Positions 31,415 through 58,757 of a stretch of 64,000 bases of DNA are shown here, one piece after another. Source of the stretch: an uncultured Mycoplasmatota bacterium. GTDB taxonomy: Bacteria > Bacillota_I > Bacilli_A > RF39 > UBA660. Under the pieces are notes generated by a model. That model saw only the letters and a list, made by a program, of their open reading frames with translations. It had not been told where the DNA came from and ran no database searches. The stretch's first letter is position 1. Each line of letters begins with the position of its first letter. Where the stretch lies: assembly GCA_946402735.1 (NCBI GenBank), contig CAMIXH010000003.1, forward strand, positions 65,472 through 129,471. Reading direction: 5' to 3'. Made by a program: the position numbers and the translations under genes.

Positions 31415-31783
31415 TTATTCTCCACCGCCGTCGTCGCTACCATCTTCGCCAGTTTTATTTGTACAAGACCATGGTGAATTAATACATGTCATACAATCTT
31501 CATATGAATTATCACCAACGATAGTCATAACTACACCAACTAGTGATACTACTAAGAATACAAGTACAGCTGCGATAGCACGTTTAATAAGTTTTTGTTG
31601 TGCTTCTTTAATTTTATCTTCACTCTTTTCAGTAACAGCTTTTGCTAAGTCAACCATACCTACTACGATTAAGATAATTGGTACAATAACTTTAATTCCC
31701 CAAATAACTATTCCTACTATTCTTAGTACTGGTCCTAAACCACTACATACTTCTGCAGCATCTAAAATATACATATCTAACAC
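31415..31783 (-). CDS. small two-TM membrane protein, paralogous to the N-terminal module of 57582..58757 (VirB2/TrbC-like topology?)
   Basis: VLRIVGIVIWGIKVIVPIILIVVG...KLIKRAIAAVLVFLV aligns with VIRIVKIIITIIKIVVPIILMVSL...KIIAAVLVFYI of the other protein. Cys-rich C-terminus CMTCINSPWSC. Confidence 0.5.
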   Translation of the reverse strand: MLDMYILDAAEVCSGLGPVLRIVGIVIWGIKVIVPIILIVVGMVDLAKAVTEKSEDKIKEAQQKLIKRAIAAVLVFLVVSLVGVVMTIVGDNSYEDCMTCINSPWSCTNKTGEDGSDDGGGE

Positions 31784-31850
31784 TCCTTTACTTTCTAATA
31801 TAATTTTATCTTAATTTCAATATATTTGTCAATCTATATTGACATTAATA

Positions 31851-32831
31851 TTACAAGTTAATCTTGTTAGCGAATTTTTTAATTGGATCAATATTCTCTT
31901 GTCTATCATCGACTGGAGGTATTGAAAATAATACGCTTAATTTTGTTTCATATTCAAATGTTGCTATATCTTCACTTCCAAGACTACATTTATTTAATAT
32001 AATCTTTTTATCTTTTAATTTTTCAAGTATACCTTTATTTTTCTTCATCATACGATTAATCATAATTGTTGATGGTTCAATTAAATAATATACTTCAGTA
32101 CAAATATCAACATCTTCATAACTATTTAAATCTACGAATATAATATCGCAAGCATTTCTCTTCATTATTTCTTTTAAAAGATCTGTAGCATTTGCACTAA
32201 CCATATCTTTATCATTGAAATATAAGAAATCTACTTTATCAACTTCTACAGCAGATACATTTCTATATCCATTTAGCATTTTCTTTAGCATATAGATAAG
32301 TGATGTACTACCTGCATGTGAAGTAACATTCTTAAATCCTATAATTCTTAGTTTTCTTCCACCACCATCAGATATAGGACCTGGATCTGAAACATAGTGC
32401 TCAACAATAGTTGTTTGTTGTTGAGGAGCTTCTTGTCCTTGATTTAAATCTTGTAAACTATGGATATTAACAACATCTCTATAAGTATGTGGATGTACTA
32501 ACAAATAGTTAATACCCTCAGCATTCTTAGTGAAGTTATAAATACCAAGTGAGATAAGTTTAGAAAGATATGATTTAGATTCAGTTTCTGGAGAATCATC
32601 TAATAAAAGTATAACATTCTCCATATTGATATTCATTGCTAGCTTTTGTAAATTATCAGTATTTTGATAATCTCTAATAGCAGTAATATCTAAAATCATT
32701 TTGTCATAATAGAAATTAGCAAAAGTATCTATAATTTCATCAACATTATAAACACCTTCTAATGACTTCATAACCTCAATGTTTAATCCCATTAATAGTT
32801 CTTTATATTTGTTATAAACCATTACATTCAT
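31851..32831 (-). CDS. TadZ/CpaE-like protein (receiver-like N-domain + ParA/MinD-like domain with degenerate P-loop)
   Basis: Position in the Tad cluster. RIIGFKNVTSHAGSTSLIYML occupies the place of the KGGVGKT deviant Walker A. IIFVDLN is Walker-B-like. Confidence 0.45.
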   Translation of the reverse strand: MNVMVYNKYKELLMGLNIEVMKSLEGVYNVDEIIDTFANFYYDKMILDITAIRDYQNTDNLQKLAMNINMENVILLLDDSPETESKSYLSKLISLGIYNFTKNAEGINYLLVHPHTYRDVVNIHSLQDLNQGQEAPQQQTTIVEHYVSDPGPISDGGGRKLRIIGFKNVTSHAGSTSLIYMLKKMLNGYRNVSAVEVDKVDFLYFNDKDMVSANATDLLKEIMKRNACDIIFVDLNSYEDVDICTEVYYLIEPSTIMINRMMKKNKGILEKLKDKKIILNKCSLGSEDIATFEYETKLSVLFSIPPVDDRQENIDPIKKFANKINL

Positions 32832-32851
32832 AATCCTTTTTCCTCCTAAAT

Positions 32852-33358
32852 CTAATCTAAGTTTTCAGTACAAGGATAATTACTCATATCAGAATAAATT
32901 GTTCTTGTTTCTCCAGTAATTGGTATTTTTACTGTTATATTAATAACTGGTAGTTTCAATGCAATATAAGTAGTAATTTTATAATGTGTGTTTGAATTTG
33001 GTACATTATTAGGACAATATTTAACAACACAATATCCACCTTCTGTTGTTACATTTTGTGAACCGTTTTGTGTTCCTTCACAAGCTATTCCTTGTGATCC
33101 AGTATAATTGTAACCTGTATTTCTTATAAGCTTATAAGCTTTTCCTTCCACAGTTTTACTCAATTCTTCTTCAGTTCTCGATGCTATATCACCTTCACCA
33201 ATAGTATATCCTTCATATTCTTCTATAAAAGATATAATATTGTTTTTAACATTGAAAGCTTTAGTATAACTAATAGAATAAGCTAAGAATCCAGAGAAAA
33301 AGAATATAAATACAATTACTATACCAAATAACCAAGCTCCACCAATTGACTCTCTCAT
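32852..33358 (-). CDS. TadE-like pseudopilin/minor pilin
   Basis: Short leader MRESIGG followed by the hydrophobic helix AWLFGIVIVFIFFFSGFLAY. It follows the pilin-like gene. Confidence 0.5.
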   Translation of the reverse strand: MRESIGGAWLFGIVIVFIFFFSGFLAYSISYTKAFNVKNNIISFIEEYEGYTIGEGDIASRTEEELSKTVEGKAYKLIRNTGYNYTGSQGIACEGTQNGSQNVTTEGGYCVVKYCPNNVPNSNTHYKITTYIALKLPVINITVKIPITGETRTIYSDMSNYPCTENLD

Positions 33359-33390
33359 ATATTTAAACTCCTTTTAATTCCCGTACTTAA

Positions 33391-33437: not shown

Positions 33438-33680
33438 TTAATTTATTCCTACACAGCTTTGACCTTTACAGCATTTCCACTCATTAACTTTTGCATTTGA
33501 ATCATTTAATTGAGTAGTAAGCTTTGAGGCTTGCCATCCGTCTCCATAAGTATTACATGTTTGTTGTACAAGCATTCTTTGTACCATAGGCCAAATAACT
33601 AGGTAAAAAACTGCTCCTAATGCTGCTACTGCAATTAAAGTAACAACTGTCATATTTAATTCACCTGTCGCTTCTTTCAT
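33438..33680 (-). CDS. Flp/type IV pilin-like small protein
   Basis: 80 aa. Leader MKEATG followed by the hydrophobic segment ELNMTVVTLIAVAALGAVFYLVIWPMV. Strong AAGGAGG RBS. The canonical Flp EY motif is absent. Confidence 0.5.
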   Translation of the reverse strand: MKEATGELNMTVVTLIAVAALGAVFYLVIWPMVQRMLVQQTCNTYGDGWQASKLTTQLNDSNAKVNEWKCCKGQSCVGIN

Positions 33681-33752: not shown

Positions 33753-34562
33753 TTACATACTGCCAAACATTTGTAAAAGAGAGAATAAAATGATTGCCAT
33801 AACACCTGCTCCTGTTGAAACAAGCATTGTCATTGTTTTCTTTTCCATTGTATCTAATCTTTCTTTATACTTAGTATCTCTTGATTTAGCTTGTAAGTTA
33901 GAAATTGTTCTAGAGAATGTAATCAATTGTTCTTGTTTTCTTTCTTGACTACCAAGACTAAGTCTATAAAGAAGTCTCATCATACGCATTGAATCTCTAA
34001 CTGGATAACGTCTAGCAAATGCCATATATGGCTCTATTGTAGAATCTCCAGCATCAATAGATGCAATTAATTCACGAAGACCAGGTTTAAACATTTCTGG
34101 TGCTTCTTCTAAACTTCTAGTAATTGCTACTGGAACTGTATAGTGTTGAATCAAGATTTCTAAACTCTTTAAATAATATGGTAGTTTTAAATTAATTTCA
34201 TGTAGATGAGCTTTATAAAATCTTTTTAACTTACTATAATCATCTTTAAATATTAAATATGTTAAACCAAATACAAGTACTAGTTTTACAGCAAAGTTTA
34301 TTCCAGATACACTAGTAATCATTATTACTATACCTATTATAAATGTTAATATTGCTGTTTTTACTCTTTTATTAAATCTTTCATTAGGATCTACTTTTTC
34401 TCCATATCTACTATTTACATAAAAGTCATAATCTTCTTCTTTTAGTTTTGAGAATACTGCTTTATTATCTGTAACAAATTTATTAAAACTAAATGCTCCT
34501 ATGTAATTAAATACTAATATTAAAATAACTCCTACTGCTAATATTTCAATTCCTGTAAACAT
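33753..34562 (-). CDS. tadC: type II secretion system F-family membrane protein (TadC-like)
   Basis: 269-aa polytopic protein with a central soluble helical domain. Start/stop overlap with the TadB-like gene, downstream of tadA. Confidence 0.6.
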   Translation of the reverse strand: MFTGIEILAVGVILILVFNYIGAFSFNKFVTDNKAVFSKLKEEDYDFYVNSRYGEKVDPNERFNKRVKTAILTFIIGIVIMITSVSGINFAVKLVLVFGLTYLIFKDDYSKLKRFYKAHLHEINLKLPYYLKSLEILIQHYTVPVAITRSLEEAPEMFKPGLRELIASIDAGDSTIEPYMAFARRYPVRDSMRMMRLLYRLSLGSQERKQEQLITFSRTISNLQAKSRDTKYKERLDTMEKKTMTMLVSTGAGVMAIILFSLLQMFGSM

Positions 34563-35461
34563 TACTCAGCACCTACATCCTCATGGTAATATTTAATTCC
34601 TGTAACTAGGAAGAATGTATTTATAAGTATTACCCCATGAAGTAATACTACTACATACCATTGTTCAAGTAATTTTATATAACTATCATTTCCTAATAAT
34701 AATTGAACTAATAATATCAAGAAATATAAGGCTATACCGAATGTTACAAATTGTTTAAAGAAGTTTGCTCTATCAATTCTATCACGATATACACTTTCAA
34801 CAAGCATATCTATATCTTGTGACATACCTTCTAAAGCTTCACCCGAGTCTTTAGAACCTTCTTTTGTTATTTGAATAAATAATTGATGCATATTTCTAAT
34901 AATGTAGTAATCATATTTTTCATTCATAAATCTTATTGCTTCATCTATAGTACCATTATCATATGCCATTTGAATCATTTCTTTAATATCACTTAGAAGT
35001 GGATCTTCAAGTACTCCTGAATCTCTAACACCTTCTAATGATTTAACGAATGATTGAGTTGTGTTATATTCCATAATAACGTTAGTTGTATATATTTGAA
35101 CTTCTTCAAATATATATTCACTATATACCTTTTTGCATCTTAGATATGCTAAATATGGAACAAACAATATTGCCGCTACAGCATATATTATTGACCAAAT
35201 AATACTATAGAAATATAAGTATGCAACAAAGGCAGCTACTACACCGAATAGTATAACTTGTCCTATATATTGCTTTGAAGTATATTCTTGTCCTAATTCT
35301 TTAGCTTTTTCTCTAACTACTTTAAAAGAATAAGGAGCATATCTTTCATAAGTATTACCTATTGTTCTTGCAATAAACTTATATGAATTGTTACCAGTAT
35401 TTTTTCTATAAATATAGATAAATACAAGAATTGCTGCAATTACAAATACTTCTATATACAT
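34562..35461 (-). CDS. tadB: type II secretion system F-family membrane protein (TadB-like)
   Basis: 299-aa protein with the same architecture, immediately after the ATPase. Confidence 0.6.
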   Translation of the reverse strand: MYIEVFVIAAILVFIYIYRKNTGNNSYKFIARTIGNTYERYAPYSFKVVREKAKELGQEYTSKQYIGQVILFGVVAAFVAYLYFYSIIWSIIYAVAAILFVPYLAYLRCKKVYSEYIFEEVQIYTTNVIMEYNTTQSFVKSLEGVRDSGVLEDPLLSDIKEMIQMAYDNGTIDEAIRFMNEKYDYYIIRNMHQLFIQITKEGSKDSGEALEGMSQDIDMLVESVYRDRIDRANFFKQFVTFGIALYFLILLVQLLLGNDSYIKLLEQWYVVVLLHGVILINTFFLVTGIKYYHEDVGAE

Positions 35462-35473: not shown

Positions 35474-36787
35474 CTACATTTCAACTATTTCTAGTCCATT
35501 ATTAACTTGTGTACTTACCCCCACTCCAACAGCACTTGTTGCTACTTGTGAAACTGGTGAAACCGGAGCAACTGCTGGTTTTGGTGTTACTGGAGCAGCT
35601 GGTGCAACTGGGGCTGCTGGTGCAGCTTGTGTTGTTTGTGCTACCGGAGCAACATTTGGTTGGGCAACTGATGTTGCCTCATTATTTATCTCACTGAATT
35701 CATCAGATGATTCCGTTATTTCTTCTCCTTTTGGAATAAAAGGATCTTCTCTCATTACTACACCTTGACTAGCTAAGTAATCAATTAAATGAGATGTTGG
35801 GTTATTATATCTTTCATTTCCTGCTAAATCTCTTTGATATAAAACATTTGCTTTAGCTTCATTAGCTTCATCATCTACATAGAACTCAACAACTTGAGTA
35901 ATTTCTCTTTGGAATCTATCATATTTCTTAGAATAGAAACCTTTAACATGAATACCCAATTGAATATATCTATGCATACTTTTAACAAATTGATCAATAT
36001 CTTGACTTGATTCAAGAAGTGAATATAAACGCATTGGAATACTTGATGCTTTATCAGAGTGTATTGTTGATAAAATGTTGTGTCCTGAAGAAATACTATT
36101 TCTAACAGCAGTAACAGCTTCAGCAGAACGAACCTCTGATAGTAAAATCCATCTTGGGTTTTGACGCATACAAGCTACAAGAACTTCTGAATATGAAGCA
36201 ATATTATTTGTTTTCATTGCTACAATATCTCTTGTTGGATAAATCTTATCTAAGTGAAGTTCTAGTGTATCTTCTATAGTTATTATCTTTTCATCTTCTT
36301 TTATATGGCTGGCTAAGTATTTAACAAGCTCTGTTTTACCTGAACCAGTTTCTCCACTAACAATTATATTGCAGTGTCCTACAACACAAGTCATTAAGAA
36401 TTCATGAAGTTTTAAAGATACATAATCTTCTTTTATTAATTTTTCTTTATTTAACCTAATCATCGCTGGTGTTTTTCTTATAAGAACAGCGATTCCATTA
36501 GTTGCTATTGAATCGTGAACAAAATTAAGACGTAACTCAGCACTTTCAGCATCTAGTAATGGATGGGCCATGTTAAAAGTTTTACCCATAACGTTAGAAC
36601 ATTGGAAAGCTAGTTTTTCCATAACATCATTATTTAAACCTTCTATATGTTCTTGGTATACACCTTTGGATAAAGATTTAACCCACAATTGTCCACCATT
36701 AGAATATGAAATATCGGTAATATCGTCATTTTCTAATAATGGCATTAGCAAACCAAAATCTATTTGTGAAAATACAATTGCGTCCAT
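35474..36787 (-). CDS. tadA: CpaF/TadA-type secretion ATPase with Pro/Ala/Val-rich C-terminal tail
   Basis: Walker A SGETGSGKTE, IITIEDTLELH, RQNPRWILLSEVR, and HNILSTIHS (His box). Confidence 0.9.
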   Translation of the reverse strand: MDAIVFSQIDFGLLMPLLENDDITDISYSNGGQLWVKSLSKGVYQEHIEGLNNDVMEKLAFQCSNVMGKTFNMAHPLLDAESAELRLNFVHDSIATNGIAVLIRKTPAMIRLNKEKLIKEDYVSLKLHEFLMTCVVGHCNIIVSGETGSGKTELVKYLASHIKEDEKIITIEDTLELHLDKIYPTRDIVAMKTNNIASYSEVLVACMRQNPRWILLSEVRSAEAVTAVRNSISSGHNILSTIHSDKASSIPMRLYSLLESSQDIDQFVKSMHRYIQLGIHVKGFYSKKYDRFQREITQVVEFYVDDEANEAKANVLYQRDLAGNERYNNPTSHLIDYLASQGVVMREDPFIPKGEEITESSDEFSEINNEATSVAQPNVAPVAQTTQAAPAAPVAPAAPVTPKPAVAPVSPVSQVATSAVGVGVSTQVNNGLEIVEM

Positions 36788-36825: not shown

Positions 36826-37620
36826 TTATTCTATTACTGTAATACTCTTATCTACATCTATTTTTTCGATAATATCAGGTTCTAAATATTGAGAATTACT
36901 TTCGATATAAGATAATATCTTTTCATTACCTAATGTAGTTTCAGCATTATAGCTTGCATTTCTTGGAACTGGTAATATTGTTCCACCAGAAATGTAGTAA
37001 GCTCTCTTAATAACTGAGAACATTTCATCTGGTACAGCAAATATTAATGCTTCTGCATTCTTTTGTTCTGCACTCTTCTTGAAAATGTGTGATCCATTTT
37101 CATCTTTAACTGCTAGTACTTCAATACCTTCAATTAAAGGTCCTAAGAACATTTTATTATTTACTGTATTTTGATAATATAAGTCAATTTTATCTCCAGG
37201 ATAAATTGAGTTTCCAAATGTAGAAGTTGAATTAACTTTTAATGAGAAAATTGTGTATCCCTCTTGAATATCAGCCCAAGCTGAGTCTGGCATTTGTTTC
37301 CATTCAACTACTGCACTTCTATAGAACATTCCACCTTCTGGAATATAAGTATTATAATTAACATATTTTCCTAATAAGTCATTTTTATTAATAATAACAT
37401 TACTAGTAATCATAGAATGAGCAACTTTAACAGTTGTAAATAAATCTTCTGTGATTTCTTCTCTTGCTTGAATATCTCTTTTAGCAATTGGTACACTTAC
37501 AGCATTTATTGCTGTATTTACTCTATATCTATAAGCAAAGAATAGAATAACTATACAAGCTATTAATGATAATAAAGTAACAATACTTTTGTTATGAAAT
37601 AATTTACTAAAGAATTTCAT
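36826..37620 (-). CDS. CpaB/RcpC-like Flp pilus assembly protein (TM + SAF domain), copy 2
   Basis: N-terminal TM. VPIAKRDIQAREEITEDLFTTVKV is SAF-like. Collinear with copy 1. Confidence 0.55.
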   Translation of the reverse strand: MKFFSKLFHNKSIVTLLSLIACIVILFFAYRYRVNTAINAVSVPIAKRDIQAREEITEDLFTTVKVAHSMITSNVIINKNDLLGKYVNYNTYIPEGGMFYRSAVVEWKQMPDSAWADIQEGYTIFSLKVNSTSTFGNSIYPGDKIDLYYQNTVNNKMFLGPLIEGIEVLAVKDENGSHIFKKSAEQKNAEALIFAVPDEMFSVIKRAYYISGGTILPVPRNASYNAETTLGNEKILSYIESNSQYLEPDIIEKIDVDKSITVIE

Positions 37621-38505: not shown

Positions 38506-38551
38506 TACAAACTAAAAAATATATATTAAATGGTTTACAATTAATATAAAT

Positions 38552-38583
38552 TAAAAATAGTTTAGGTTAAAAACCTAAACTAT
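38552..38583 (-). terminator. terminator after yfhO-like gene
   Basis: Arms atagtttaggtt (38557-38568) and aacctaaactat (38572-38583), with a U-tract on the minus strand. Confidence 0.7.
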
Positions 38584-38585
38584 TC

Positions 38586-48697: not shown

Positions 48698-48698
48698 A

Positions 48699-49440: not shown

Positions 49441-49447
49441 TATTTTT

Positions 49448-52400: not shown

Positions 52401-53392
52401 CAATAGAATGCATAAGCTATATCGCTTGCATTACAAGTACATGAAGATACTGAATTAGCTGTTTTACATTCTGAAATAGCAGTAGAAACATTTACTTGTC
52501 TACTTGTATGTTCAGCATCCCCTTCTTTTTTATCTTCATAAGTCCATGTTTCTTCTTTTTCACACCATTGATCATCTTTATTTGAAGCTTTGTTGAAAGT
52601 CCAACCAGTATCGCAACTGATTGTATCTGGATCACTTACGGTTTTAGTTTTTATGCATGCAATCTCGTTTGCACTAAGACCACTTCGATCTACTTTTTTG
52701 TCGCATGTAGAACATCCGCCTCCGCCGCCATCATCTACAACCATAGCTTCCATATTTGAAACTTTTGGATTTATAATTAATTCATTATCGAAAATTTCAG
52801 GTTTAATATCTAAGAAAGATTTGCTTGCTTCCCTTACAATTTCAGGTCTTGGATTTGGTCTAACTGGGCTAATAACAGTATTGCCTCCGCCGCCACTTGG
52901 AGGTGAATCATCGTCTCCTTCTTCCAATTTTTTAACACAATCTTGATCTACATATTCTTCAGTATGTGAATGTGGAGTATATGTTGGACGAACCCTAGCA
53001 GTATAAGTACATGGTAAAATTCCTTTAACATACGATTTTGGATCTGAACATATTGGTAGTGAAACTGTAATAACTCCTTTGTTATCAGCTCTTTTTATTG
53101 TATACCAATCATGATAATCACCAATACCAGTAACCCAAGTATAGTCACTCCAGTCTTGCCTTCCTCCTTGAGGAACACCTACACCAGAACCAATACTAAC
53201 TTGTTGGAATCCTGAGATTGTGAATGTACCACAAACAGGCATAGTAGCAGTAATATGAGTTGGACCAAACATAGTTGTCTCAGTCATAAGAACTTTTTCT
53301 TCTGAACAAGTTAGTTCATCCGCTACTATCTTATTTGTATATATAAAAATCAAAAAAACTAATAATACTAATTTTGCAATTGTTTTTTTCAT
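49448..53392 (-). CDS. giant secreted cysteine-rich protein, paralog 1 (function unknown; putative adhesin)
   Basis: Start placed at the ATG at 53392 (MKKTIAKLVLLVFLIFIYTNKIVA signal peptide, GAGGAA RBS). The track extends to 53419. Blocks shared with paralog 2: SYSTVDCGYANILIEGA, KDPSLKCILN, FCR(I/V)YCSDEV, EKRNCVSEIYY. Confidence 0.7.
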   Translation of the reverse strand: MKKTIAKLVLLVFLIFIYTNKIVADELTCSEEKVLMTETTMFGPTHITATMPVCGTFTISGFQQVSIGSGVGVPQGGRQDWSDYTWVTGIGDYHDWYTIKRADNKGVITVSLPICSDPKSYVKGILPCTYTARVRPTYTPHSHTEEYVDQDCVKKLEEGDDDSPPSGGGGNTVISPVRPNPRPEIVREASKSFLDIKPEIFDNELIINPKVSNMEAMVVDDGGGGGCSTCDKKVDRSGLSANEIACIKTKTVSDPDTISCDTGWTFNKASNKDDQWCEKEETWTYEDKKEGDAEHTSRQVNVSTAISECKTANSVSSCTCNASDIAYAFYCPVYTCTKEDKEVELCTPVFQTPTGGTVYCVNPGQEFSSGYSTTAEYIPDSDFSVKNCETSYSTVDCGYANILIEGAKYEIPDKTIEFAMRLWGVHTQQAGFDTIGISNRTGTNCGTATYFMLSNGYSGDLINPYVETYKEFAKVILDKVRYKDEIIPTGDLSVFEITCDKNKLGVACGTGDQEYKVALALLANTVLGNNKMQEHLRDLFDGEISEEVETAELMTSEDGTQYVQVTFEELREVTHNSNLKIDCTKLDEMVSSGKITAEQKEQIEPFCRVEISLVDGRGRELPGYGPAYPDYCIKNYCRRKLENFAICDLDESITTPIKIVVTYEKSPSSKSVTKYVSCSNPLNNQILFGFDADLTDTETHPSTDPTEEREPYSETFEIRNYKCAGFCDDYSIREDSKDNCDDNASNYNRTYDSSFKDPSLKCILNMGSAAYKNSYNYSDEFEVGNRFCRIYCSDEVVFHMADKIKETSGKRFYYDIERSVRNDKNIRYLFTNIVEEKRNCVSEIYYDVNKFSDSVDWKGIYNLGKTTRGTSDGITDEEIEGIDSWKTLFEVLVKKAQNEGGRTENINRILYDLFNCNLYTEKEIKDAGVVKPKDYKAKNIKETIIKKFQKSNNYGIGTDTNCKFGASDAERDRECVSMNNIQYDFGAPTAGKTAVMKSVVSSKNTLSDLIYCSGEDCFYYDLDHPENEYNYPTNKTSSTETLDVKETFGDNTRISGQVFSSDKVDIPINDYVMFTVQTDISFYNSSRYQVKPDGKVITAGSERGKNYLLLDAYAYTVDRNAYNSGVCSDRDFLKGINYRRCNITHSYNRIETYFRKNSNDSFYTTVNNHKNHSCYVDVEIPSPECDPSKQICRIGTTYRNVDIANMFPSSTDGYTTKTNSNWGTENGKKATLNITQSASTIRTTEEYLQYSITLNPVQIENIKSYNNNNTYVNEAVFNCQISGDTYRNCISPFMEELRTNGEYGTIDQKHNGKN

Positions 53393-53498
53393 ATATTTCC
53401 TCACATTATACAAAATCATTTTATCAAAAATCTATAAAAATATCTACATTTATAGATAAAAAGTTTTAATTATTATATAATTAGTTAGAGGTATAATT

Positions 53499-54074
53499 AT
53501 GCATAAAATATTTAATAGAGAGATAAAATACATTAAAAATGAAAGAATAAAAAATAGTTTAATAACTATGTTAGATAAACTACCATCATACTTTTATGAA
53601 GTTCCAGCTAGTAGTACTGGTAAGTATCATCCAGAGTTTTCTCTAGGTAAAGGTGGATTAGTTAGACATACTAAAGCAGCTGTAAGAATAGCAATAGAAT
53701 TATTTATGGATGAATCATTAAATAATTTTACTGATGATGAAAAGGACTTAATAATAATGGCATTAACTCTACATGATGGTCTTAAAAGTGGACTAGTTAA
53801 AAGTGAATATACTGCATTTGAGCATCCAATATTAGTTGCTGATTATATTAGAGATAATAAAAAAGATTTAGAATTAACAGATGAAGAAATAAACTTTGTT
53901 TGTGATGCTATTATTACTCATATGGGACCATGGACAAAGAATTACAAAGGAGAAGAAGTATTATCTCCTCCAGAAACTAAATATCAAAGATTTGTTCATA
54001 TGTGTGATTATTTAGCCAGTAGAAAATTCTTAGATATAAAGTTTGATAAAAATGACAATATAAAAGATGAATAA
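53499..54074 (+). CDS. HD-domain phosphohydrolase
   Basis: SSTGKYHPEFSLGKGGLVRHT and ALTLHDGLKSG give the H...HD pattern, similar to the YhaM-type HD region. Confidence 0.65.
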   Translation: MHKIFNREIKYIKNERIKNSLITMLDKLPSYFYEVPASSTGKYHPEFSLGKGGLVRHTKAAVRIAIELFMDESLNNFTDDEKDLIIMALTLHDGLKSGLVKSEYTAFEHPILVADYIRDNKKDLELTDEEINFVCDAIITHMGPWTKNYKGEEVLSPPETKYQRFVHMCDYLASRKFLDIKFDKNDNIKDE

Positions 54075-54101
54075 TTAAAAATATTCATCTTCTTTTTTTT
54101 C
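54064..54101 (+). terminator. rho-independent terminator of the HD gene
   Basis: Arms aagatgaata (54064-54073) and tattcatctt (54082-54091), followed by cTTTTTTTT. Confidence 0.7.
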
Positions 54102-54263
54102 TGGATCTTTTACTTCAGCATTTCCTTTTAAAGTATTAAATTCATCATTATCTTTAAATAACTCATTTGCCTTTTTAGATTCACAAAAGCTTTTAATATA
54201 TTGTTTATATGATGATTTATCTTCTTTCATTTCATCAATTTTCTTTTTTAAATCTTCTTTCAT
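54075..54263 (-). CDS. small K/E-rich hypothetical protein
   Basis: 62-aa ORF starting 10 nt after the upstream stop, with a GGTGA RBS. Its 3' end overlaps the plus-strand terminator. Confidence 0.35.
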   Translation of the reverse strand: MKEDLKKKIDEMKEDKSSYKQYIKSFCESKKANELFKDNDEFNTLKGNAEVKDPEKKEDEYF

Positions 54264-54273: not shown

Positions 54274-56862
54274 TTAACTTTGTATTTCTACAATCTTTAG
54301 ATTATTATCTCTTGCTATTTCTAATAAATCCGAAGTTAGTTTACTAGTTACTATAATATAAGAAGCTTCCATCTTTTTATCATTATAACTATCACTATTA
54401 ACTTTTACTATAATTTTATCATCTTCACTTGTGAATCTAATACTTCTTCCTTCGACTAATGTATTATACGCATAAACATTTTTAGTTAATTGACTAACAT
54501 TTAAGCATTCAAAATTGCTGCCATCATCATTAGTTGAGCATAATACTCTAAAGTCTTGATTAACTACAGTATATACTTCTACACCTTCACGTTCATTCTT
54601 AATAACTATATCAGGTCTAGAATTATAAAGAGCTTCTATTTCTCCTATTGAAACAATTTCATTGTTAATTAAATCAACTCTATATTTCTTTAGTTTATTA
54701 AATAATTCCATTGTTCCTAGTATATTTCTTTTAACTTTGTTCTTAATAACATTTTCAATAAAAGTAATTAATAAATCAAAATCATTTATTGAGAATAATA
54801 ACTTAGTCATTGAGAATAATTCAACTTCATCATTAGTAAATACTTTTTTGCCATCTATTTCTAATGTTTTTAAAGCATCTATTTCATATATATCACATAC
54901 TTGTTTAACAGTATCTGTTTCTAACCATCCTACATCACCTTTTTCATCATAAGACTTATTAAATAAGTAATGACATAGTATATTTTTATATATTTTCTCA
55001 TCTTTAATATTTGTTAATTCATTAACAACCTTTTTAATAGAAATAATATCATAATCACTTAATTGATCTTTCTTTTCTATCTTATATGGATTAAAGAATG
55101 TTGCTAATAATAATGCTAAGTTCTCTAATTCTTCTCTATTTAATTCTTTATCTTGTATATCAGTTATTATTCCTTTATAGTAATTAAAGTTTTCAATTAT
55201 TCTATATAATGTTTCTTTATTCTCTCCATAGATATGTATTACTATTTCATAATATAATTTAAATAACTCATATATTTTATCTGATTTAACAATTAACAAT
55301 AGATTAGATATATTAACAAAATTATATTTAGAAAAATCATCTAATAATTCTTTACTAATAAATGATAATTTTGGATCAAATAATTCTAATGAACTTAGAT
55401 TATATATTTCTTTATTATTATTAACTGTTGTATTATATGCAGTTGATAATATTTCATTTAATAATTTAACACATAGTTTCTTTGAAGTATCAGTTGCATT
55501 GTTTTTATACATTAAACATGTACCAATATATATTGATATTTTTTCAAAATTATTCTTTTCAATTATACTTTTATTAAATAGAATCTTCAATAATTCTAAA
55601 ATACATCTATAATCTCTAGCAAAATTATAATCTTCTAAGTTTTCTAAGTATTCATTATATATTTTATTTATTATTTTATAATATTTAGCATATATATCAT
55701 TTCCATAGTATGCTTTAAATACATTTAAACATCTAAGGTTAGAATCTATAATTATTCTTTCTTTTTCTTCTTTTGAAACAGTATCTATATATAATGGTGC
55801 TACATATGGAAGTATATAATTAGCATCTACCATTATTAAAGTAACTATTTGATCTATTGATAATTTTTGTATCTTACGCATTAAAGTTTTAGTATATTGA
55901 TAGCTTATATCATTGCTCTTAGGATGAAATCTATATAATTTACCCTTAGCATTTAATACACATTTATTAACTAAAACATTAACTATTTCTTTATTACTTT
56001 TACTTTGAATACTATCAAGTAATTCACATATCATTTCTTGAGTATCTTCATTCTTTCTATTTGATAATGATAAATTAACATTCTTTATTAATGAAAAATC
56101 ATATTTTAATAAACTTATAATAGTAGGCGTTTCTAAATAATTCATTATATATGGACGTCTCTTGACATACTCTCTTTGGATATCCATATCAGATTGTTTA
56201 AGTAAATTAATGTCTTCTTCTATTTTTTCTAATTGTGAATTTATATATTTTTCTCTAGCTTCTCCATTTAAATACATAACAAACTTTTCATCTTCAGCTT
56301 TTTCTTTTTGAATGTTTTGAGAAGCATACTTAATAAACACTGGGTTAACATCAATTATATATTCCCATTGTCTATCTATAAACTTATCTTTAGCTGCCTC
56401 AATAATAGCTTCAGTTTGTTTTAAATCATATTCACTAAGAACTTTAACTACTGTTCTTAAGTCATTCATGAATAGTAAAGGTAAATCCTTAGGTTGTTTA
56501 AAGTATAATTTTATATATTCTTTTTGTTCTTCTTCAGTTAAACCAACGTTAGCAGCATTCATAAAGAACTTATTGCCACTAATCCAAGAACTAACTAAGC
56601 CTCTTTTGGCTTCATCACTACCCTGTTTAAACATTTGAAGATTGCTATTGATTCTTGATTTTTGGAAATCAACAGGCATTATTCTTATTAAAGAAGGGTA
56701 GTTAAAAAATAGGTAGCTTAAAACTATCTCATTATTTTCGAATTCTTTATTGTCTAAATAAGCTTGTTCAACCTCTTTTTCACTCTTGTTTTTTAGAGTT
56801 TTAATAAAGTTGTTAGCTTTTCTTGCTATTTGTCTACTTTGAAATTGCTTAAATAGTGACAT
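54274..56862 (-). CDS. large (862 aa) predicted cytoplasmic helical protein, no recognisable domain
   Basis: Long uninterrupted ORF with no signal peptide or TM and no motif I recognise. Confidence 0.6.
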   Translation of the reverse strand: MSLFKQFQSRQIARKANNFIKTLKNKSEKEVEQAYLDNKEFENNEIVLSYLFFNYPSLIRIMPVDFQKSRINSNLQMFKQGSDEAKRGLVSSWISGNKFFMNAANVGLTEEEQKEYIKLYFKQPKDLPLLFMNDLRTVVKVLSEYDLKQTEAIIEAAKDKFIDRQWEYIIDVNPVFIKYASQNIQKEKAEDEKFVMYLNGEAREKYINSQLEKIEEDINLLKQSDMDIQREYVKRRPYIMNYLETPTIISLLKYDFSLIKNVNLSLSNRKNEDTQEMICELLDSIQSKSNKEIVNVLVNKCVLNAKGKLYRFHPKSNDISYQYTKTLMRKIQKLSIDQIVTLIMVDANYILPYVAPLYIDTVSKEEKERIIIDSNLRCLNVFKAYYGNDIYAKYYKIINKIYNEYLENLEDYNFARDYRCILELLKILFNKSIIEKNNFEKISIYIGTCLMYKNNATDTSKKLCVKLLNEILSTAYNTTVNNNKEIYNLSSLELFDPKLSFISKELLDDFSKYNFVNISNLLLIVKSDKIYELFKLYYEIVIHIYGENKETLYRIIENFNYYKGIITDIQDKELNREELENLALLLATFFNPYKIEKKDQLSDYDIISIKKVVNELTNIKDEKIYKNILCHYLFNKSYDEKGDVGWLETDTVKQVCDIYEIDALKTLEIDGKKVFTNDEVELFSMTKLLFSINDFDLLITFIENVIKNKVKRNILGTMELFNKLKKYRVDLINNEIVSIGEIEALYNSRPDIVIKNEREGVEVYTVVNQDFRVLCSTNDDGSNFECLNVSQLTKNVYAYNTLVEGRSIRFTSEDDKIIVKVNSDSYNDKKMEASYIIVTSKLTSDLLEIARDNNLKIVEIQS

Positions 56863-56958
56863 AATCCAACCTCTTCTATTCCATTCTATAGTTTATTATA
56901 ACATAATAAAAAATGAAAAAAAAGACGAATAAATAAAAACAAATAAGTTATTTCTAAC

Positions 56959-57573
56959 CTATTCGTTATTTTTTTGTTTCTTTTTTAAATAAATGATTCC
57001 AATTACTATGCCTATTCCCACTAGTACAAATAGTATATTTTGTAAAGTAAATATATTATTTTTTAATATTTCTTTGCTGATATTGAAATGAATATCATTG
57101 TTTTCTTTTTGTACATTCCAAATATATTCATTATTACTCTTTTCATCAGCATTATTACTCATCATTCTATTATCTGCTTTAACATTTAAAGTAAATGGAG
57201 CACATTCACTTTTTCCTTTTAAATAGATAAATATTGTTTTATCATCTTCTTCAACAGCAGCATATTCAAAACATCTTTTTAAAATATCATTCTCTTTAAA
57301 ATTATCATATGTGTATGTATAACTATATTCTCCTTTGTAATTACCATTTTGATCACTATAGCTTACTTCTTTATATATTTCATCATATGAATCCTTTATA
57401 GGACGAGCTTCATTTATTATAGCTTCTATATCCATACCAGATTGATTATATTCTACTTCAGTAAATGAAAATTCTATTTTAGTATCTATTTTATCATTAA
57501 AATCAATAGTTAGTTTATTAGTACATCCCGCTAGGATAAAACATATTAGAATTAAAATTAGTCCTTTTTTCAT
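56959..57573 (-). CDS. lipoprotein with additional C-terminal TM anchor
   Basis: Lipobox LILICFILAGC. C-terminal ILFVLVGIGIVIGIIYLKKKQK. Confidence 0.55.
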   Translation of the reverse strand: MKKGLILILICFILAGCTNKLTIDFNDKIDTKIEFSFTEVEYNQSGMDIEAIINEARPIKDSYDEIYKEVSYSDQNGNYKGEYSYTYTYDNFKENDILKRCFEYAAVEEDDKTIFIYLKGKSECAPFTLNVKADNRMMSNNADEKSNNEYIWNVQKENNDIHFNISKEILKNNIFTLQNILFVLVGIGIVIGIIYLKKKQKNNE

Positions 57574-57581
57574 AATTCCTC

Positions 57582-58757
57582 CTATAACTTAGAATATGCT
57601 TCTGCCCTTCTAATAGTTCCATATATTGATTCTATATCACTCACTGATTTGAATTCTCCACTCTTCTTTCTCTTATCGGCCCAATTAACATATGGATCTA
57701 GAAGAACTACATTTCCTCTACTACTATAAGATAAAACTATATAATGTCCTGGTACTAAAGCTAATACTGGTTTCCCTGATTTTAAAGCAGACTCTATTTG
57801 ACCTCTACTAACTGTCTCACACTTTAGATTATAATGAGCAATCATTTTATTATTACCTATTTCGCCCCAACTAGCTGCTCCATAACCTCTATGAATTAAT
57901 TCACCATCTTTAATATTTCTCATATATTTAATAACACTATATGGATTAATATTAGGGTCATTATTCAAACCAGCTGCTATCATAGCAAATGATGTGTATC
58001 CACAAGCAGATGAACATAAAGTAGCTGGTCCACCATTTGAACCTCCACCTATATCATATTGTATATTTTTCCATCTATCATCACATTGTTTATAATAGTA
58101 AATTCCCATTACGTTATCTACATTACCACTTACGCCAACAGCAAAACTAGTGTTACCTCCACCACCAGTGCTTCCACCTGATGAGCCCCCTGAAGAACCT
58201 CCTTCTCTTTCTCTTCTTGCTTGTTCTTCTCTTTCTTTTCTTTGGCGCTCTTTTTCTTCTTCCTCTTTTTTCTCTTTTTCCTTTATAGCATTTTCTATTT
58301 CTTCTAATTCTTTTTCTAATTCTTTTCTTGACGATTCATCTTTAACTTTATGAACCATATTAGTTGCTAACATAAGATCGTTTCTCTTTAATGATTGTTT
58401 TGCAAAATTCAAATATATTTTAGCATCACTAACTAATACTTGAGCAATATATTCTTTATTAGCATTTGTTAAACATTTTGTATAATTATTACTATCATAA
58501 GATGAAATACTAGCAATTACACTTACAAATGTAGGTATGTAAAAAACAAGTACTGCTGCTATTATTTTAGGAGCCAATGCTTTATTAGCTTTAGCTAAAG
58601 CATCAAAATCACTAGATTTTACAGCAATTAAATAATTAATAGAAAGTGAAACCATTAATATAATAGGAACAACTATTTTAATAATTGTTATAATTATTTT
58701 CACTATTCTAATTACTGATAATATTTCTGCATTGTCACAAATACTAGTTATTAACAT
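57582..58757 (-). CDS. fusion: two-TM membrane module + K/E coiled coil + G/S linker + C39-like (YvpB/Peptidase_C39_2-type) cysteine peptidase domain
   Basis: The N-terminus is paralogous to 31415..31783. YYYKQCDDRW...TLCSSACGYTSFAMIAAGL (Cys) and PVLALVPGHYIVLSY...VVLLDP (His/Asp) fit a papain-like C39_2 domain. Confidence 0.55.
   Translation of the reverse strand: MLITSICDNAEILSVIRIVKIIITIIKIVVPIILMVSLSINYLIAVKSSDFDALAKANKALAPKIIAAVLVFYIPTFVSVIASISSYDSNNYTKCLTNANKEYIAQVLVSDAKIYLNFAKQSLKRNDLMLATNMVHKVKDESSRKELEKELEEIENAIKEKEKKEEEEKERQRKEREEQARREREGGSSGGSSGGSTGGGGNTSFAVGVSGNVDNVMGIYYYKQCDDRWKNIQYDIGGGSNGGPATLCSSACGYTSFAMIAAGLNNDPNINPYSVIKYMRNIKDGELIHRGYGAASWGEIGNNKMIAHYNLKCETVSRGQIESALKSGKPVLALVPGHYIVLSYSSRGNVVLLDPYVNWADKRKKSGEFKSVSDIESIYGTIRRAEAYSKL

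Follow-up and report, generated by a model that had tools for sequence, protein, structure and literature searches.

In uncultured gut Bacilli that are walled and low in GC, the gene block at 31415-58757 would encode a single machine that builds a surface filament, with giant adhesins presented by modular DUF5411 pseudopilins. We assign this reading a probability of roughly 0.55. The evidence for a filament machine is computational throughout. The window is the whole 64,000-nt stretch of DNA that was analyzed.

Organization of the locus

The ORF listing agrees with the initial annotation in showing 21 close-packed minus-strand genes, including a 62-aa gene at 54075..54263, and a sole plus-strand gene, the HD gene at 53499..54074. 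Genes overlap or abut at 37620, 34562 and 42711-42714, and also at 48697-48701 if giant B starts at its internal ATG. Internal terminators had been placed at about 49.4, 45.0, 41.2 and 38.6 kb. The sites at 49.4 and 38.6 kb carry a G+C hairpin and a T-run, as does the block end, but the hairpins at 45.0 and 41.2 kb are purely A+T.

49414..49441, minus strand: terminator-like hairpin (G+C hairpin and T-run), 3' of giant A
38551..38589, minus strand: terminator-like hairpin (G+C hairpin and T-run), 3' of the YfhO gene
31392..31407, minus strand: terminator-like hairpin (G+C hairpin and T-run), block end

An extended -10 promoter match (11/12) lies at 38505-38476, between the 38551..38589 hairpin and the Tad core. 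In agreement with the reported lack of an A24 prepilin peptidase, Peptidase_A24 matched none of 51 window proteins scanned, a set that takes in all multi-TM ORFs but not about 12 cytoplasmic-looking ORFs of the first 12.8 kb.

A divergent Tad-type core

Profile and homology searches support the presence of a divergent, monoderm Tad/type-IVc-like core at the 3' end of the block.

37620..38438, minus strand: CpaB/RcpC-like protein 1 (TM, SAF-like and RcpC-like regions); RcpC 20.7 bits, under the cut-off; TIGR03177 1.8e-7
36826..37620, minus strand: CpaB/RcpC-like protein 2; RcpC 31.4 bits, over the cut-off of 28.8
35474..36787, minus strand: CpaF/TadA-VirB11-family secretion ATPase with a C-terminal tail rich in Pro/Ala/Val; T2SSE 97.7 bits
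34562..35461, minus strand: TadB-position polytopic platform protein
33753..34562, minus strand: TadC-position polytopic platform protein
33438..33680, minus strand: Flp-sized pilin candidate, 80 aa, invariant N-terminus MKEATGELNMTV
32852..33358, minus strand: minor-pilin candidate in the TadE position, 168 aa, N-terminus MRE[SA]xGG and then a hydrophobic helix
31851..32831, minus strand: conserved cytoplasmic protein, 326 aa
31415..31783, minus strand: two-TM hairpin protein of a VirB2-like T4SS_pilin-type family, 122 aa, last block gene; PF18895 18 bits

The initial annotation had described a recognizable Tad/type IVc set, which holds for the ATPase and for one CpaB protein above the cut-off, but not for the pilin, TadE and TadZ calls, which lack HMM support. 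The CpaF/TadA assignment is borne out by the T2SSE score and by the best PDB matches (CpaF, 1.6e-19; FlaI, 2.4e-18; VirB11, 7e-14). The ATPase retains 70-93% identity across the lineage, and both it and the TadB-position protein are conserved above the housekeeping neighbor PcrA (59-77% identity, substantial matches only). As to the two proteins called CpaB/SAF, the second passes the Pfam RcpC cut-off but the first does not; they are 39% identical to each other, and the first is 32% identical (E 3e-25) to a Priestia SAF-domain protein. The TadB- and TadC-like calls receive no direct profile support, neither protein having a direct Pfam or PDB match, and their link to T2SSF runs only through homology to a Priestia plasmid gene and its neighbor. 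The TadB-position protein matches a Priestia 'T2SS F family' protein (BLASTP E 2e-7; family hhalign 90.4%), which itself scores 24.2 bits against PF00482, below the 25.2-bit cut-off. The TadC-position protein is homologous to the gene after that T2SSF gene (28% identity, E 6e-22, hhalign 97.8%), and its more than 7000 homologues are every one unnamed.

Profile searches matched neither the 80-aa nor the 168-aa pilin candidate to any family, and a G/XXXXEY or G/FxxxE processing motif is absent from both. The N-terminus of the 80-aa protein is unchanged in 28 relatives; that of the TadE-position protein is also conserved, and its gene is present in two copies in L062, L076 and L079. The TadZ-like call finds no support for the 326-aa protein (43-85% identity in relatives): it has no Pfam, NCBIfam or PDB match, and hhalign does not relate it to the AAA_31 protein of Priestia. 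By profile match, both the gene that closes the block and the N-terminal part of a C39-like protein at its other end are assigned to a VirB2-like T4SS_pilin-type family that the first reading missed. PF18895 is matched by 14 of 22 members of the hairpin protein's family (best E 8.9e-6); the protein has four conserved external Cys, and its gene reaches three tandem copies in L062.

The giants and DUF5411, their proposed carrier

Upstream of the core lie the giants, their small membrane partners and the DUF5411 gene.

49448..53419, minus strand: giant A, Cys-rich secreted protein with a Sec signal; probable start ATG 53392
48699..49355, minus strand: 's', 218-aa signal-peptide/C-terminal-TM protein with Cys, first member of an s-giant-DUF5411 triad
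45044..48760, minus strand: giant B; probable start ATG 48697, overlapping the stop of the gene upstream
44426..44956, minus strand: 'P', DUF6568/PedC-like protein, membrane-anchored, Cys-free; PF20207 78.7 bits
42711..44384, minus strand: 'S', SrtB fusion, ~340-aa N-terminal region (cytoplasmic domain and one TM) and class B sortase
42073..42714, minus strand: 't', 213-aa signal-peptide/C-terminal-TM protein with a conserved YRKxKHGI tail
41205..42017, minus strand: 'D', DUF5411 module and two C-terminal type I dockerins; PF17424 168 bits, Dockerin_1 52 bits

Several calls made from the sequence alone were confirmed here. The giants are paralogs (38% identity over 1059 aa), as are the families of 's' and 't' (hhalign 99.3%); the protein said to end in two dockerins does so and is also a DUF5411 protein; and the sortase-B fusion carries, in its C-terminal third, a sortase domain at 169 bits against TIGR03064 (cut-off 153.75), with a PDB SrtB match of 1e-34 and a visible TLSTC motif. 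The window yielded no sortase substrate that bears a sorting signal. The PedC-like protein, whose family carries that label among the precomputed Pfam names of the protein collection and which would have a thioredoxin fold judging from its family name, occurs alongside the SrtB fusion in 35 loci. Its identity, like that of the YfhO/PgfM-like protein at 38586..41123, had not been named in the initial annotation.

The giants have signal peptides, 27 invariant Cys and no Pfam match, and giant A has no NCBIfam match either; P0001, which is 100% identical to giant A, begins 9 residues later. The AF2 model of giant B (pLDDT 78.7, pTM 0.59) finds nothing at E<=1e-3 by Foldseek in PDB or BFVD, and its family numbers 368 representatives (E<=1e-3) among 1.84 billion proteins. 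Across the lineage the giants share 22-67% identity where the ATPase retains its much higher values, which indicates fast evolution. Of 32 distant members, 3 carry Flg_new and 1 has a thioester domain. The giants are probably surface or adhesion proteins.

The AF2 model of DUF5411 (pLDDT 80) shows a 48-residue N-terminal helix and a β-sheet; Foldseek finds no significant match to a solved pilin, and we regard the protein, on its predicted shape, as a candidate pilin-shaped pseudopilin. Its C-terminal modules swap between genomes (dockerin, C39-like, Flg_new/InlB-type repeats, YbbR). Wherever the DNA upstream of a DUF5411 gene is long enough (75 genes), the gene comes after a Cys-rich secreted giant ORF of at least 700 aa (68) or a 't' gene (7), and the window has the latter arrangement, with DUF5411 directly after this g10-like gene. 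Such strict coupling suggests a stoichiometric complex rather than an enzyme and its substrate.

Miller et al. labeled related DUF5411 operons in Lachnospiraceae/Ruminococcaceae 'secretion-related'. Read in that way, the Tad-like machine would work either as a pseudopilus piston like that of a T2SS or as a conduit across the wall; it would carry the Sec-exported giants, and the modules borne on DUF5411, past the peptidoglycan/teichoic-acid layer for release, and the giants would be substrates, not pilus-bound adhesins. T2SS and Tad share ancestry among type IV filaments, the sequences of the giants show neither a membrane anchor nor a sorting signal, and the two CpaB/RcpC ring-type proteins occur in a thick-wall context, with teichoic-acid and LtaS genes within the window. 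We nevertheless consider secretion in place of display unlikely: we know of no T2SS-type wall-crossing system demonstrated in monoderms, DUF5411 with dockerin or InlB-type modules resembles a display scaffold, and the giant-DUF5411 coupling points to a complex.

Conservation of the gene set

Across 76 species-level loci from uncultured gut Bacilli, the Trx-like protein 'P', SrtB fusion, ~215-aa membrane paralogs, giant, DUF5411 and Tad core occur together. Two internal gene orders are seen among them, (s)G..PStD and PSt sGD (G, giant), and retention of the set despite two orders speaks for selection acting on the set itself and against mere inheritance of an order. The 't' gene invariably follows the SrtB fusion, and an 's' gene lies upstream of a giant in nearly every locus. 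Among 51 loci with both flanks, 29 have giant, SrtB and ATPase, and 4 more have giant and ATPase. These data support a tie between the uncharacterized genes and the Tad core beyond adjacency in one genome.

Tandem duplicates of the sGD triad are seen in L022, L027, L028, L031, L033 and L036, and in about 9-14 of the 51 loci triads occupy satellite sites that have no Tad gene within 10 kb. Giants without adjacent Tad genes in relatives, which the initial annotation had named as evidence against linkage, are thus found in part of the loci; cis-linkage is not obligatory, and giants could act without the filament. The original idea of a single envelope-spanning display or secretion apparatus gains from the recurrence of the set in two orders but is weakened by these satellites.

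The pcrA...ltaS neighborhood is syntenic in the lineage, so that gene order seems more significant than it is, and conserved order by itself is weaker evidence. With PcrA upstream and LtaS downstream also fixed in position, terminator-like hairpins and a strong promoter match dividing the block, and triads found apart from Tad genes, the block could hold two or more unrelated systems in one conserved neighborhood: an ordinary divergent Tad pilus beside a separate wall-protein set (giants, SrtB, PedC-like, DUF5411). This is quite improbable in our view, as internal rearrangement leaves the set intact, DUF5411 has a pilin-like N-terminal helix, and outside the lineage DUF5411 has CpaB, ATPase and T2SSF genes for neighbors, both on the plasmid of Priestia and in the Lachnospiraceae/Ruminococcaceae operons.

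Additions in this genome and upstream neighbors

57582..58757, minus strand: C39 fusion, 391 aa, two-TM hairpin, charged Gly/Ser-rich linker and extracytoplasmic Peptidase_C39_2-like domain
56959..57573, minus strand: 204-aa protein, lipoprotein-type signal peptide and C-terminal TM; window-specific
54274..56862, minus strand: cytoplasmic protein, 862 aa, frequent upstream neighbor
54075..54263, minus strand: charged protein, 62 aa, always after the 862-aa gene
53499..54074, plus strand: HD-domain protein, conserved neighbor; PF01966 27.6 bits
38586..41123, minus strand: YfhO/PgfM-like polytopic glycosyltransferase; PF09586 228 bits, PgfM2 5.9e-26

The C39 fusion, 204-aa and YfhO genes are window-specific additions. 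The C39-like peptidase call stands as a resemblance, but Peptidase_C39_2 scores 22.9 bits, under the cut-off of 24; the T4SS_pilin match is weak. Its N-terminus is, as proposed, paralogous to the last gene (38% identity over 107 aa). The bracketing of the block by these paralogs is, however, an accident of one genome: relatives whose contig reaches pcrA have neither the C39 fusion nor the 204-aa gene, and in them pcrA adjoins the 862-aa gene or the HD gene, and in L002 and L005 no C39 fusion lies between pcrA and the 862-aa gene. The same C39-like domain is joined to DUF5411 in L038 and L047. The 204-aa protein has no match in Pfam, NCBIfam or, by tblastn, 82 loci, and shows a weak likeness to the 218-aa family (24%, E 0.22). 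The YfhO gene, between DUF5411 and the Tad core, is likewise an insertion in this genome; elsewhere it is seen solely in L047, inverted and 23% identical.

The 862-aa protein has no Pfam, NCBIfam or PDB match and 15 homologous ORFs in the loci (40-73% identity). Its gene is dispensable, since it is absent from L015 and L017, where pcrA adjoins the HD gene. The 62-aa protein shows 43-72% identity in relatives, with a 50-60 aa gene at the same position in L001, L002, L005 and L006, and the HD gene is inverted in 22 loci (59-87% identity).

Relatives on plasmids

The Priestia plasmid has the same order, large surface protein, DUF5411, SAF/CpaB, ATPase, T2SSF, and shares with the window the pairing of a large surface protein and DUF5411 with a Tad core. 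On plasmids, the position of the giants is taken by an Ig-like protein in one case and a thioester adhesin in another. Among plasmid ATPases, the nearest belong to the CpaF/VirB11 family and come from Bacillota plasmids; 1078 of the 2052 records that match are typed conjugative. The cassette of Paraclostridium, which includes a thioester adhesin and a T4SS_pilin gene (27.8 bits), has VirD4-like and pLS20_p028 conjugation genes next to it. These plasmid links, the VirB2-like gene that closes the locus, and the DNA uptake mediated by Tad-type pili in Micrococcus could suggest a filament domesticated from Bacillota plasmid modules for mating-contact pili or adhesins, or one that serves natural transformation, in place of adhesion to a host or partner, but this is very unlikely, as profile searches recognized no VirB4, VirD4, relaxase, ComEC or ComEA in the block or scanned flanking proteins, the chromosomal position between pcrA and ltaS is fixed in many species, and the fast-evolving giants, like the dockerin/InlB modules of DUF5411, indicate adhesion.

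A proposed filament that presents giants

In the filament machine that we favor, the CpaF-type ATPase would form a motor seated on the two TadB/TadC-position platform proteins, and the two CpaB/RcpC-like proteins may form a conduit or collar in the wall zone. The 80-aa Flp-sized pilin and the TadE-position minor pilin would polymerize into the filament, with the VirB2-like hairpin protein as a possible further membrane or filament subunit. The adhesin cassette would consist of 's' as a ~215-aa membrane-anchored helper, the Sec-exported, Cys-rich giant of 1200-1300 aa, and DUF5411 as carrier, whose N-terminal helix could enter the filament and whose small β-domain would be followed by exchangeable C-terminal modules (two dockerins in the window). 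DUF5411 may hold or carry the giant at the tip or the base of the filament, much as minor pilins hold PilC/PilY1 or CpaL/TadG. The Cys-rich cargo may be matured or anchored by the PedC-like protein, which has no Cys, together with the SrtB fusion and 't'.

A giant-presenting Tad-type filament is partly anticipated in the literature: a CpaF, PilC/GspF and DUF5411 operon was predicted independently in Clostridia (PMC9523054), the uncultured TANB77 clade has a divergent Tad cluster (PMC11680825), and minor pilins hold tip adhesins via β-strand complementation (PMC12918778). The conserved block of Tad-type motor, giants and DUF5411 is probably one adhesive machine of a little-studied kind.

Organization of the locus and its flanks

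The minus-strand gene run between 58757 and 31415 probably encodes a divergent Tad-type (type IVc-like) filament machine, in which cassettes of three genes would supply adhesive cargo and the DUF5411 protein would be a modular pseudopilin that holds a giant secreted protein (probability about 0.55). The ORF listing agrees with the initial annotation on the layout: the run holds 21 minus-strand genes, a count that takes in a 62-aa gene kept in relatives, and the HD gene, whose HD domain is confirmed by HMM search, is the sole plus-strand gene inside it. The main features are as follows.

57582..58757 (-), C39 fusion (hairpin module plus Peptidase_C39_2-like domain)
56959..57573 (-), 204-aa gene
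54274..56862 (-), 862-aa gene
54075..54263 (-), 62-aa gene
53499..54074 (+), HD gene
49448..53419 (-), giant A, Cys-rich secreted protein
45044..48760 (-), giant B, paralog of giant A
44426..44956 (-), DUF6568/PedC-like protein
42711..44384 (-), SrtB fusion
41205..42017 (-), DUF5411 protein with two dockerin repeats
38586..41123 (-), YfhO/PgfM-like glycosyltransferase
36826..37620 (-), CpaB/RcpC protein
34562..35461 (-), TadB-position protein
33753..34562 (-), TadC-position protein
32852..33358 (-), TadE-position protein, 168 aa
31851..32831 (-), 326-aa protein
31415..31783 (-), VirB2-like hairpin protein

Many gene junctions of the block abut or overlap, and the G+C content of the window is about 27%. 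All paralogies proposed earlier are real, and the glycosyltransferase and the PedC-like protein, left unnamed then, are now named. Among the four internal terminators that had been proposed, G+C-containing hairpins are present at 49.4 and 38.6 kb, whereas only A+T-only hairpins are found at 45.0 and 41.2 kb; a terminator-like G+C-containing hairpin also lies at 31.4 kb.

The teichoic-acid, LtaS and LCP functions encoded in the flanks mark the carrier as a walled monoderm, although related MAGs are titled "Tenericutes" or "Mollicutes". LtaS lies at 29327..31174 and the LCP protein at 26748..28682, and a wall teichoic-acid-type cluster at 12822..22894 (-) contains two TagF-like glycerophosphotransferases, a GT4 TagO-like gene, an ABC-2 permease, two Acyl_transf_3 paralogs and a pyruvyl transferase. 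Two adjoining helical proteins of about 105 aa (61610..62247, -) look WXG100-like by eye, and a 202-aa and 131-aa pair (62945..63957, -) has the look of a SipW-type signal peptidase next to a small secreted product; neither the WXG100-like nor the SipW-like genes have a Pfam match at E<=1e-3.

The Tad-like core and the pilin candidates

The ATPase is of the CpaF/TadA type of the PilT/VirB11 superfamily that Tad systems use. It matches PF00437 (T2SSE) at 97.7 bits, contains the Walker A motif GETGSGKT and has CpaF as its best PDB match (1.6e-19), while its matches to the TadA-family model TIGR03819 (3.9e-28) and to VirB11 (3.1e-33) are both under the equivalog cut-offs. The C-terminus of the ATPase (35474..35670, -) is a Pro/Ala/Val-rich low-complexity tail of about 60 residues (…AQPNVAPVAQTTQAAPAAPVAPAAPVTPKPAVAPV…), unusual among CpaF-type ATPases, which registers as plus-strand hairpins at 35611-35679 in the terminator scan. 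The CpaB/RcpC protein at 36826..37620, another Tad component, scores 31.4 bits on PF16976 and its paralog 20.7 bits (cut-off 28.8); the TIGR03177 match is under its cut-off. Direct HMM or PDB sequence searches with CpaB2, the number given to the protein at 36826..37620, and with the 862-aa protein yielded nothing usable.

The initial annotation had also called TadB-, TadC-, pilin-, TadE- and TadZ-like proteins, and none of these calls has direct profile or PDB support. The TadB- and TadC-position proteins do not match PF00482 even at E<=10, and neither they as single sequences nor the TadC-position family profile match the PDB. Their apparent link to T2SSF is indirect and runs through proteins of a Priestia plasmid: the TadB-position protein is related to a T2SSF-family protein (BLASTP 2e-7, family hhalign 90.4%) that itself scores 24.2 bits on PF00482, just under the 25.2-bit cut-off, and the TadC-position protein to the product of the following gene (6e-22, hhalign 97.8%). 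This bridge was obtained by tblastn against plasmids; a homology search with the TadC-position protein (more than 7000 homologues, all unnamed) gave none, because its matches are only near-identical unnamed proteins. No paralogy between the TadB- and TadC-position families is detected by hhalign, since profiles with an Neff of about 1.7 lack the depth for it. The 326-aa protein, considered as TadZ/CpaE, has no Pfam, NCBIfam or PDB match and is not linked by hhalign to the AAA_31 protein of Priestia.

The N-terminus of the 80-aa pilin candidate (MKEATGELNMTV) is invariant in 28 relatives; the protein lacks a Glu at +5 after any Gly, as the Flp motif G/XXXXEY has it, and does not match PF04964. 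The 168-aa protein, which begins MRE[SA]xGG, has no TadE/TadF (PF07811) match at E<=10 and is TadE-compatible only in position, size and N-terminal hydrophobic helix. Both share with DUF5411 an N-terminus of the type M-[KR]-E-x-x-[GW] followed by a hydrophobic helix, and a canonical prepilin cleavage motif is found in none of the three. The reported lack of a dedicated A24 prepilin peptidase (TadV/CpaA) holds for the 51 window proteins scanned with PF01478, a set that takes in every multi-TM ORF but, within the first 12.8 kb, not some 12 ORFs of cytoplasmic appearance.

Giants, DUF5411 and the other exported proteins

The giants have signal peptides and 27 invariant cysteines, and no Pfam match. 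The AF2 model of mature giant B (pLDDT 78.7, pTM 0.59, usable confidence) is a predicted mixed α/β, multidomain protein without a Foldseek match in the PDB or BFVD at E<=1e-3, and the giants show neither sequence nor fold similarity to PilC/PilY1 with its C-terminal β-propeller. A word-indexed search gave 28 giant relatives, and an exhaustive profile search extended the family to 368 cluster representatives at E<=1e-3, 133 of them at E<=1e-30. Among 32 distant members, three carry Listeria-Bacteroides (Flg_new) repeats and one a thioester domain. Exact-sequence look-ups of the window DUF5411 protein and of P0001, a 100% identical relative of giant A, returned no match.

The DUF5411 (PF17424) match is full-length (168.3 bits, model positions 1-133 of 134), and the N-terminus MKESxWGY is invariant. 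In the model (pLDDT 80), an N-terminal helix of 48 residues (2-49) precedes a small α/β domain with a 4-5-stranded sheet, a predicted shape that is the "lollipop" of pilins, with no Foldseek match in the PDB at E<=1e-3, solved pilins included. Across genomes, the C-terminal modules of DUF5411 proteins are dockerin pairs, Peptidase_C39_2, Flg_new/InlB repeats, YbbR or uncharacterised extensions of up to about 350 residues. The window protein carries two Dockerin_1 repeats (52.3 bits), and no cohesin was detected in any scanned window protein. The organism has several dockerin-bearing surface proteins: a second one, outside the locus, is encoded at 23041..25308 (+) (755 aa; two SH3_3 domains, a cadherin-like domain and Dockerin_1), directly followed by a cadherin-like 483-aa protein (25319..26770, +).

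The last gene of the locus, like the module at the N-terminus of the C39 fusion, belongs to a two-TM hairpin family, in which 14 of 22 aligned members match PF18895 (T4SS_pilin) at E<=0.01 (best 8.9e-6); the window hairpin protein scores 18 bits (cut-off 26.6). The C39-like domain of the window fusion scores 22.9 bits on Peptidase_C39_2 (cut-off 24), and that on DUF5411 in the homologous locus L038 scores 24.6 bits. The domain is thus a passenger swapped between two membrane-helix carriers, the VirB2-like hairpin in the window and DUF5411 elsewhere. Its fusion to DUF5411 is seen in L038, L039-L044, L047, L052 and L056, in genes of about 370-385 aa. Tandem arrays of two or three hairpin paralogs end the locus in L062 (16636..18305) and L076 (17181..20006), some with Cys-rich N-terminal extensions of 130-270 residues.

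The SrtB fusion has a class B sortase domain (TIGR03064, 169.3 bits, cut-off 153.75; PDB SrtB structures, 1e-34), with the motif TLSTC, behind about 340 uncharacterised residues. A sorting-signal scan of all window ORFs found no recognisable substrate; its one match, NPLAN in an ABC permease, is due to chance. Members of the 's' (218-aa) and 't' (213-aa) families have type I membrane topology, share conserved cysteines and lack a sorting motif. A classical sortase-assembled pilus is rejected, no LPXTG-type pilins being found in the window.

A rival reading, a T2SS-like device that secretes the giants across the wall, we consider unlikely.

Comparative anatomy of the locus

A scan of one genome per species with the DUF5411 alignment as query gave 228 confirmed matches, and 76 loci were kept, all from uncultured gut MAGs. 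The record titles are Bacilli, Tenericutes, Mollicutes, Mycoplasmatota, Erysipelotrichaceae and "Clostridium sp. CAG:524/CAG:1000", and judging from these titles the carriers would be RF39-type lineages. All window proteins were compared with the loci by tblastn, and the genes are coded here as s and t for the two type I membrane families, G for giant, P for PedC-like, S for SrtB fusion, D for DUF5411, B for CpaB-like, E for ATPase, F and C for the platform pair, p and e for the pilin candidates, Z for the 326-aa protein and v for the hairpin. About ten loci have the window-type order (s)G(sG) P S t D BB E F C p e Z v, and the majority type is P S t sG D (sGD) BB E F C p e Z v. The gene set therefore survives internal rearrangement. 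The sGD triad is tandemly duplicated in L022, L027, L028, L031, L033 and L036, and lone triads occupy satellite sites, where 10 kb of surrounding sequence holds no Tad genes, in L013, L014, L036, L057 and others.

Among the 51 loci with long flanks on both sides, giant, SrtB and ATPase occur together in 29, giant and ATPase in four, and only the giant is detectable in seven; tblastn finds none of the three in five, and in each of the four of these that were inspected a large Cys-rich secreted ORF lies directly upstream of DUF5411. The position of DUF5411 follows a rule without exception: of the 75 genes preceded by 3.6 kb or more of available sequence, 68 directly follow a Cys-rich secreted ORF of at least 700 aa and seven follow 't', as in the window. 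Identity across loci is 70-93% for the ATPase, 55-93% and 48-82% for the TadB- and TadC-position proteins, and 22-67% for the giants; the housekeeping neighbours PcrA and LtaS, counted where the match is substantial, show 59-77% and 50-74%. The motor is therefore more strongly constrained than a housekeeping helicase, and the giants evolve in the manner of exposed surface proteins.

PcrA upstream and LtaS downstream are likewise syntenic in the lineage, and order conservation within the lineage is therefore not independent evidence; the rearrangement, the duplications and the cassettes outside the lineage are. That the genes are unrelated neighbours in a syntenic lineage is a reading that we regard as quite improbable.

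Some features are specific to the window. L007, the closest species-level relative, has one giant, not two, and the 862-aa gene is missing in L015 and L017. Relatives whose loci reach pcrA have neither the C39 fusion nor the 204-aa gene. The proposed bracketing of the block by paralogs is therefore incidental to this genome, and it is rejected as a structural feature of the system because relatives lack the C39 fusion. The YfhO gene is missing from relatives, except for an inverted copy with 23% identity at the same junction in L047, which suggests that a glycosyltransferase has been repeatedly recruited to the DUF5411/CpaB junction. This YfhO-like gene of L047 (Clostridium sp. CAG:524) lies at 12595..13635, on the opposite strand.

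Relation to plasmid cassettes and known systems

Searched by tblastn against plasmids, the ATPase finds CpaF/VirB11-family genes of Bacillota plasmids at 30-34% identity. In Priestia koreensis NZ_CP061869.1 the order is SLH protein, Ig-like protein (993 aa), DUF5411, SAF-domain (CpaB) protein, AAA_31, CpaF/VirB11 ATPase, T2SS F family protein, 279-aa protein and DUF4320. Paraclostridium bifermentans NZ_CP079739.1 has a related cassette with a thioester adhesin (783 aa), small Flp-like genes and a T4SS_pilin gene over the cut-off, and it adjoins VirD4-like and pLS20_p028 conjugation genes. Between the Paraclostridium cassette and the conjugation genes (12196..13168) sit two nearly identical 47-aa Flp-sized genes and the 75-aa T4SS_pilin gene (27.8 bits), a group that could form a pilus module in conjugative plasmids of Gram-positive bacteria.

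Like the window, the plasmid cassettes place a large surface protein (followed by DUF5411 in Priestia) before SAF/CpaB, CpaF/VirB11 ATPase, T2SSF (only indirectly linked in the window), TadC-like and small pilin-like genes, the T4SS_pilin gene being in the Paraclostridium cassette. Unlike the window locus, they are carried on plasmids, in one case beside conjugation genes, and have large proteins that bear no relation to the Cys-rich giants; an AAA_31 (TadZ/CpaE-like) gene is present, and the SrtB fusion and PedC-like gene are absent. A domesticated conjugation or DNA-uptake module, to which the hairpins and the Paraclostridium neighbourhood could point, is very improbable, with no VirB4 or VirB6/VirB8-type channel proteins among the proteins of the block or flanks. 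A T4SS is rejected because no VirB4 or VirB6 was recognised in the block, and a prophage or phage-tail origin because of the lack of a viral fold match and the fixed chromosomal position.

With Tad/Flp (type IVc) pili (Aggregatibacter Tad, Caulobacter Cpa, Bifidobacterium breve Tad) the locus shares a single CpaF/TadA-type ATPase, two separate candidate platform proteins right after it, CpaB/RcpC-type proteins before it, and, following the platform pair, genes for a short, Flp-sized pilin candidate and for larger minor-pilin candidates. It differs in lacking a G/XXXXEY leader, an A24 TadV/CpaA in the window and recognisable TadZ/CpaE, TadE/F (PF07811) and Flp (PF04964), and in having two CpaB paralogs. 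It also adds the giants, DUF5411, the SrtB fusion, the PedC-like protein, the s/t paralogs and the VirB2-like hairpin, which to our knowledge have never been described in Tad loci.

The core association is already in the literature. It was partly anticipated by Miller et al. (2022; PMC9523054), who computationally predicted a new secretion-related system, a CpaF + PilC/GspF + DUF5411 + InlB-like operon found in Roseburia, Ruminococcus and Eubacterium. That operon shares the DUF5411-Tad core association, and InlB-type (Flg_new) repeats also occur on DUF5411 and giants in relatives of the window locus; it differs in having 8-9 genes, belonging to Clostridia, and having no reported giants, sortase fusion or PedC-like gene. 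The TANB77 cluster (PMC11680825) is a parallel from another uncultured, reduced-genome gut Firmicute, with a Tad core recognisable mainly by structure and several unannotatable pilin-like genes, but with fused TadC/TadB, with TadZ and CpaE, and with no DUF5411, giants or sortase reported. Patescibacteria have arrays of two-TM hairpins of the same Pfam family PF18895, sometimes in tandem (bioRxiv 10.1101/2025.01.22.634366), comparable to the three copies in L062; there they accompany VirB4-type T4SS genes, and in the window locus a CpaF-type ATPase. PilC/PilY1 with PilK-type minor pilins and CpaL/TadG place a Sec-exported non-pilin of about 1000 aa or a large minor-pilin-like protein at the filament tip (PMC12918778, PMC12607857). 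The shared concept is a large protein coupled to a minor pilin, and its proposed counterpart here is the giant gene directly coupled to the DUF5411 gene; the giants have no sequence or Foldseek similarity to PilY1, PilC or any other solved protein, and DUF5411 does not match solved minor pilins.

Interpretation and significance

The finding is real and wholly computational. Identities, co-occurrence and predicted shapes are observed, whereas we infer that a filament exists, that the giant touches DUF5411, and what the accessory proteins do. In the filament machine that we favour, the sGD cassettes would supply the adhesive cargo; DUF5411, as a modular pseudopilin, would enter the filament through its N-terminal helix, present its own C-terminal module and hold the giant encoded immediately upstream, analogous to PilC/PilY1 on PilK-type minor pilins or CpaL/TadG in Tad pili (PMC12918778). 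Maturation or anchoring of the Cys-rich cargo would fall to the PedC-like protein, the SrtB fusion and 't'. The locus would be Tad-like in its working, a variant of the type IV filament kind; it is not filed as canonical Tad because several defining features are lacking (a processing motif of the Flp kind, profile matches to TadZ and TadE/F and, within the window, an A24 peptidase) and because the T2SSF link is only indirect.

More speculatively, and rather doubtfully, the locus could represent a distinct type IV filament class of walled Bacillota. Its pilins, with a very short invariant M-K/R-E-x-x-G N-terminus, would be matured without an A24 prepilin peptidase, and VirB2-like hairpin subunits would be part of the machine. 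The filament would serve as a modular scaffold for display, in which DUF5411 pseudopilins would plug interchangeable dockerins, peptidase-like domains and InlB repeats, and new-fold, disulfide-rich giant adhesins, onto the cell surface; the cargo would be matured by a fused sortase of its own and by a PedC-like helper (thioredoxin-fold by inference). Such a machine would be the main attachment organ to host or partner cells in genome-reduced gut Bacilli.

The locus ties gut-commensal chromosomes to Bacillota plasmid cassettes. If the favoured filament machine is real, DUF5411 gains a function as a modular pseudopilin, a new family of Cys-rich surface proteins of about 1200 aa without known fold relatives is added, a sortase and the PedC-like helper would join the accessory factors of type IV filaments, and the locus would be a test case for monoderm Tad-type filaments without recognisable prepilin processing. 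The carriers are abundant yet uncultured low-GC gut Bacilli, and the combination of a conserved motor with fast-evolving, duplicating giants is what one would expect of a central organ of attachment that faces host or partner.
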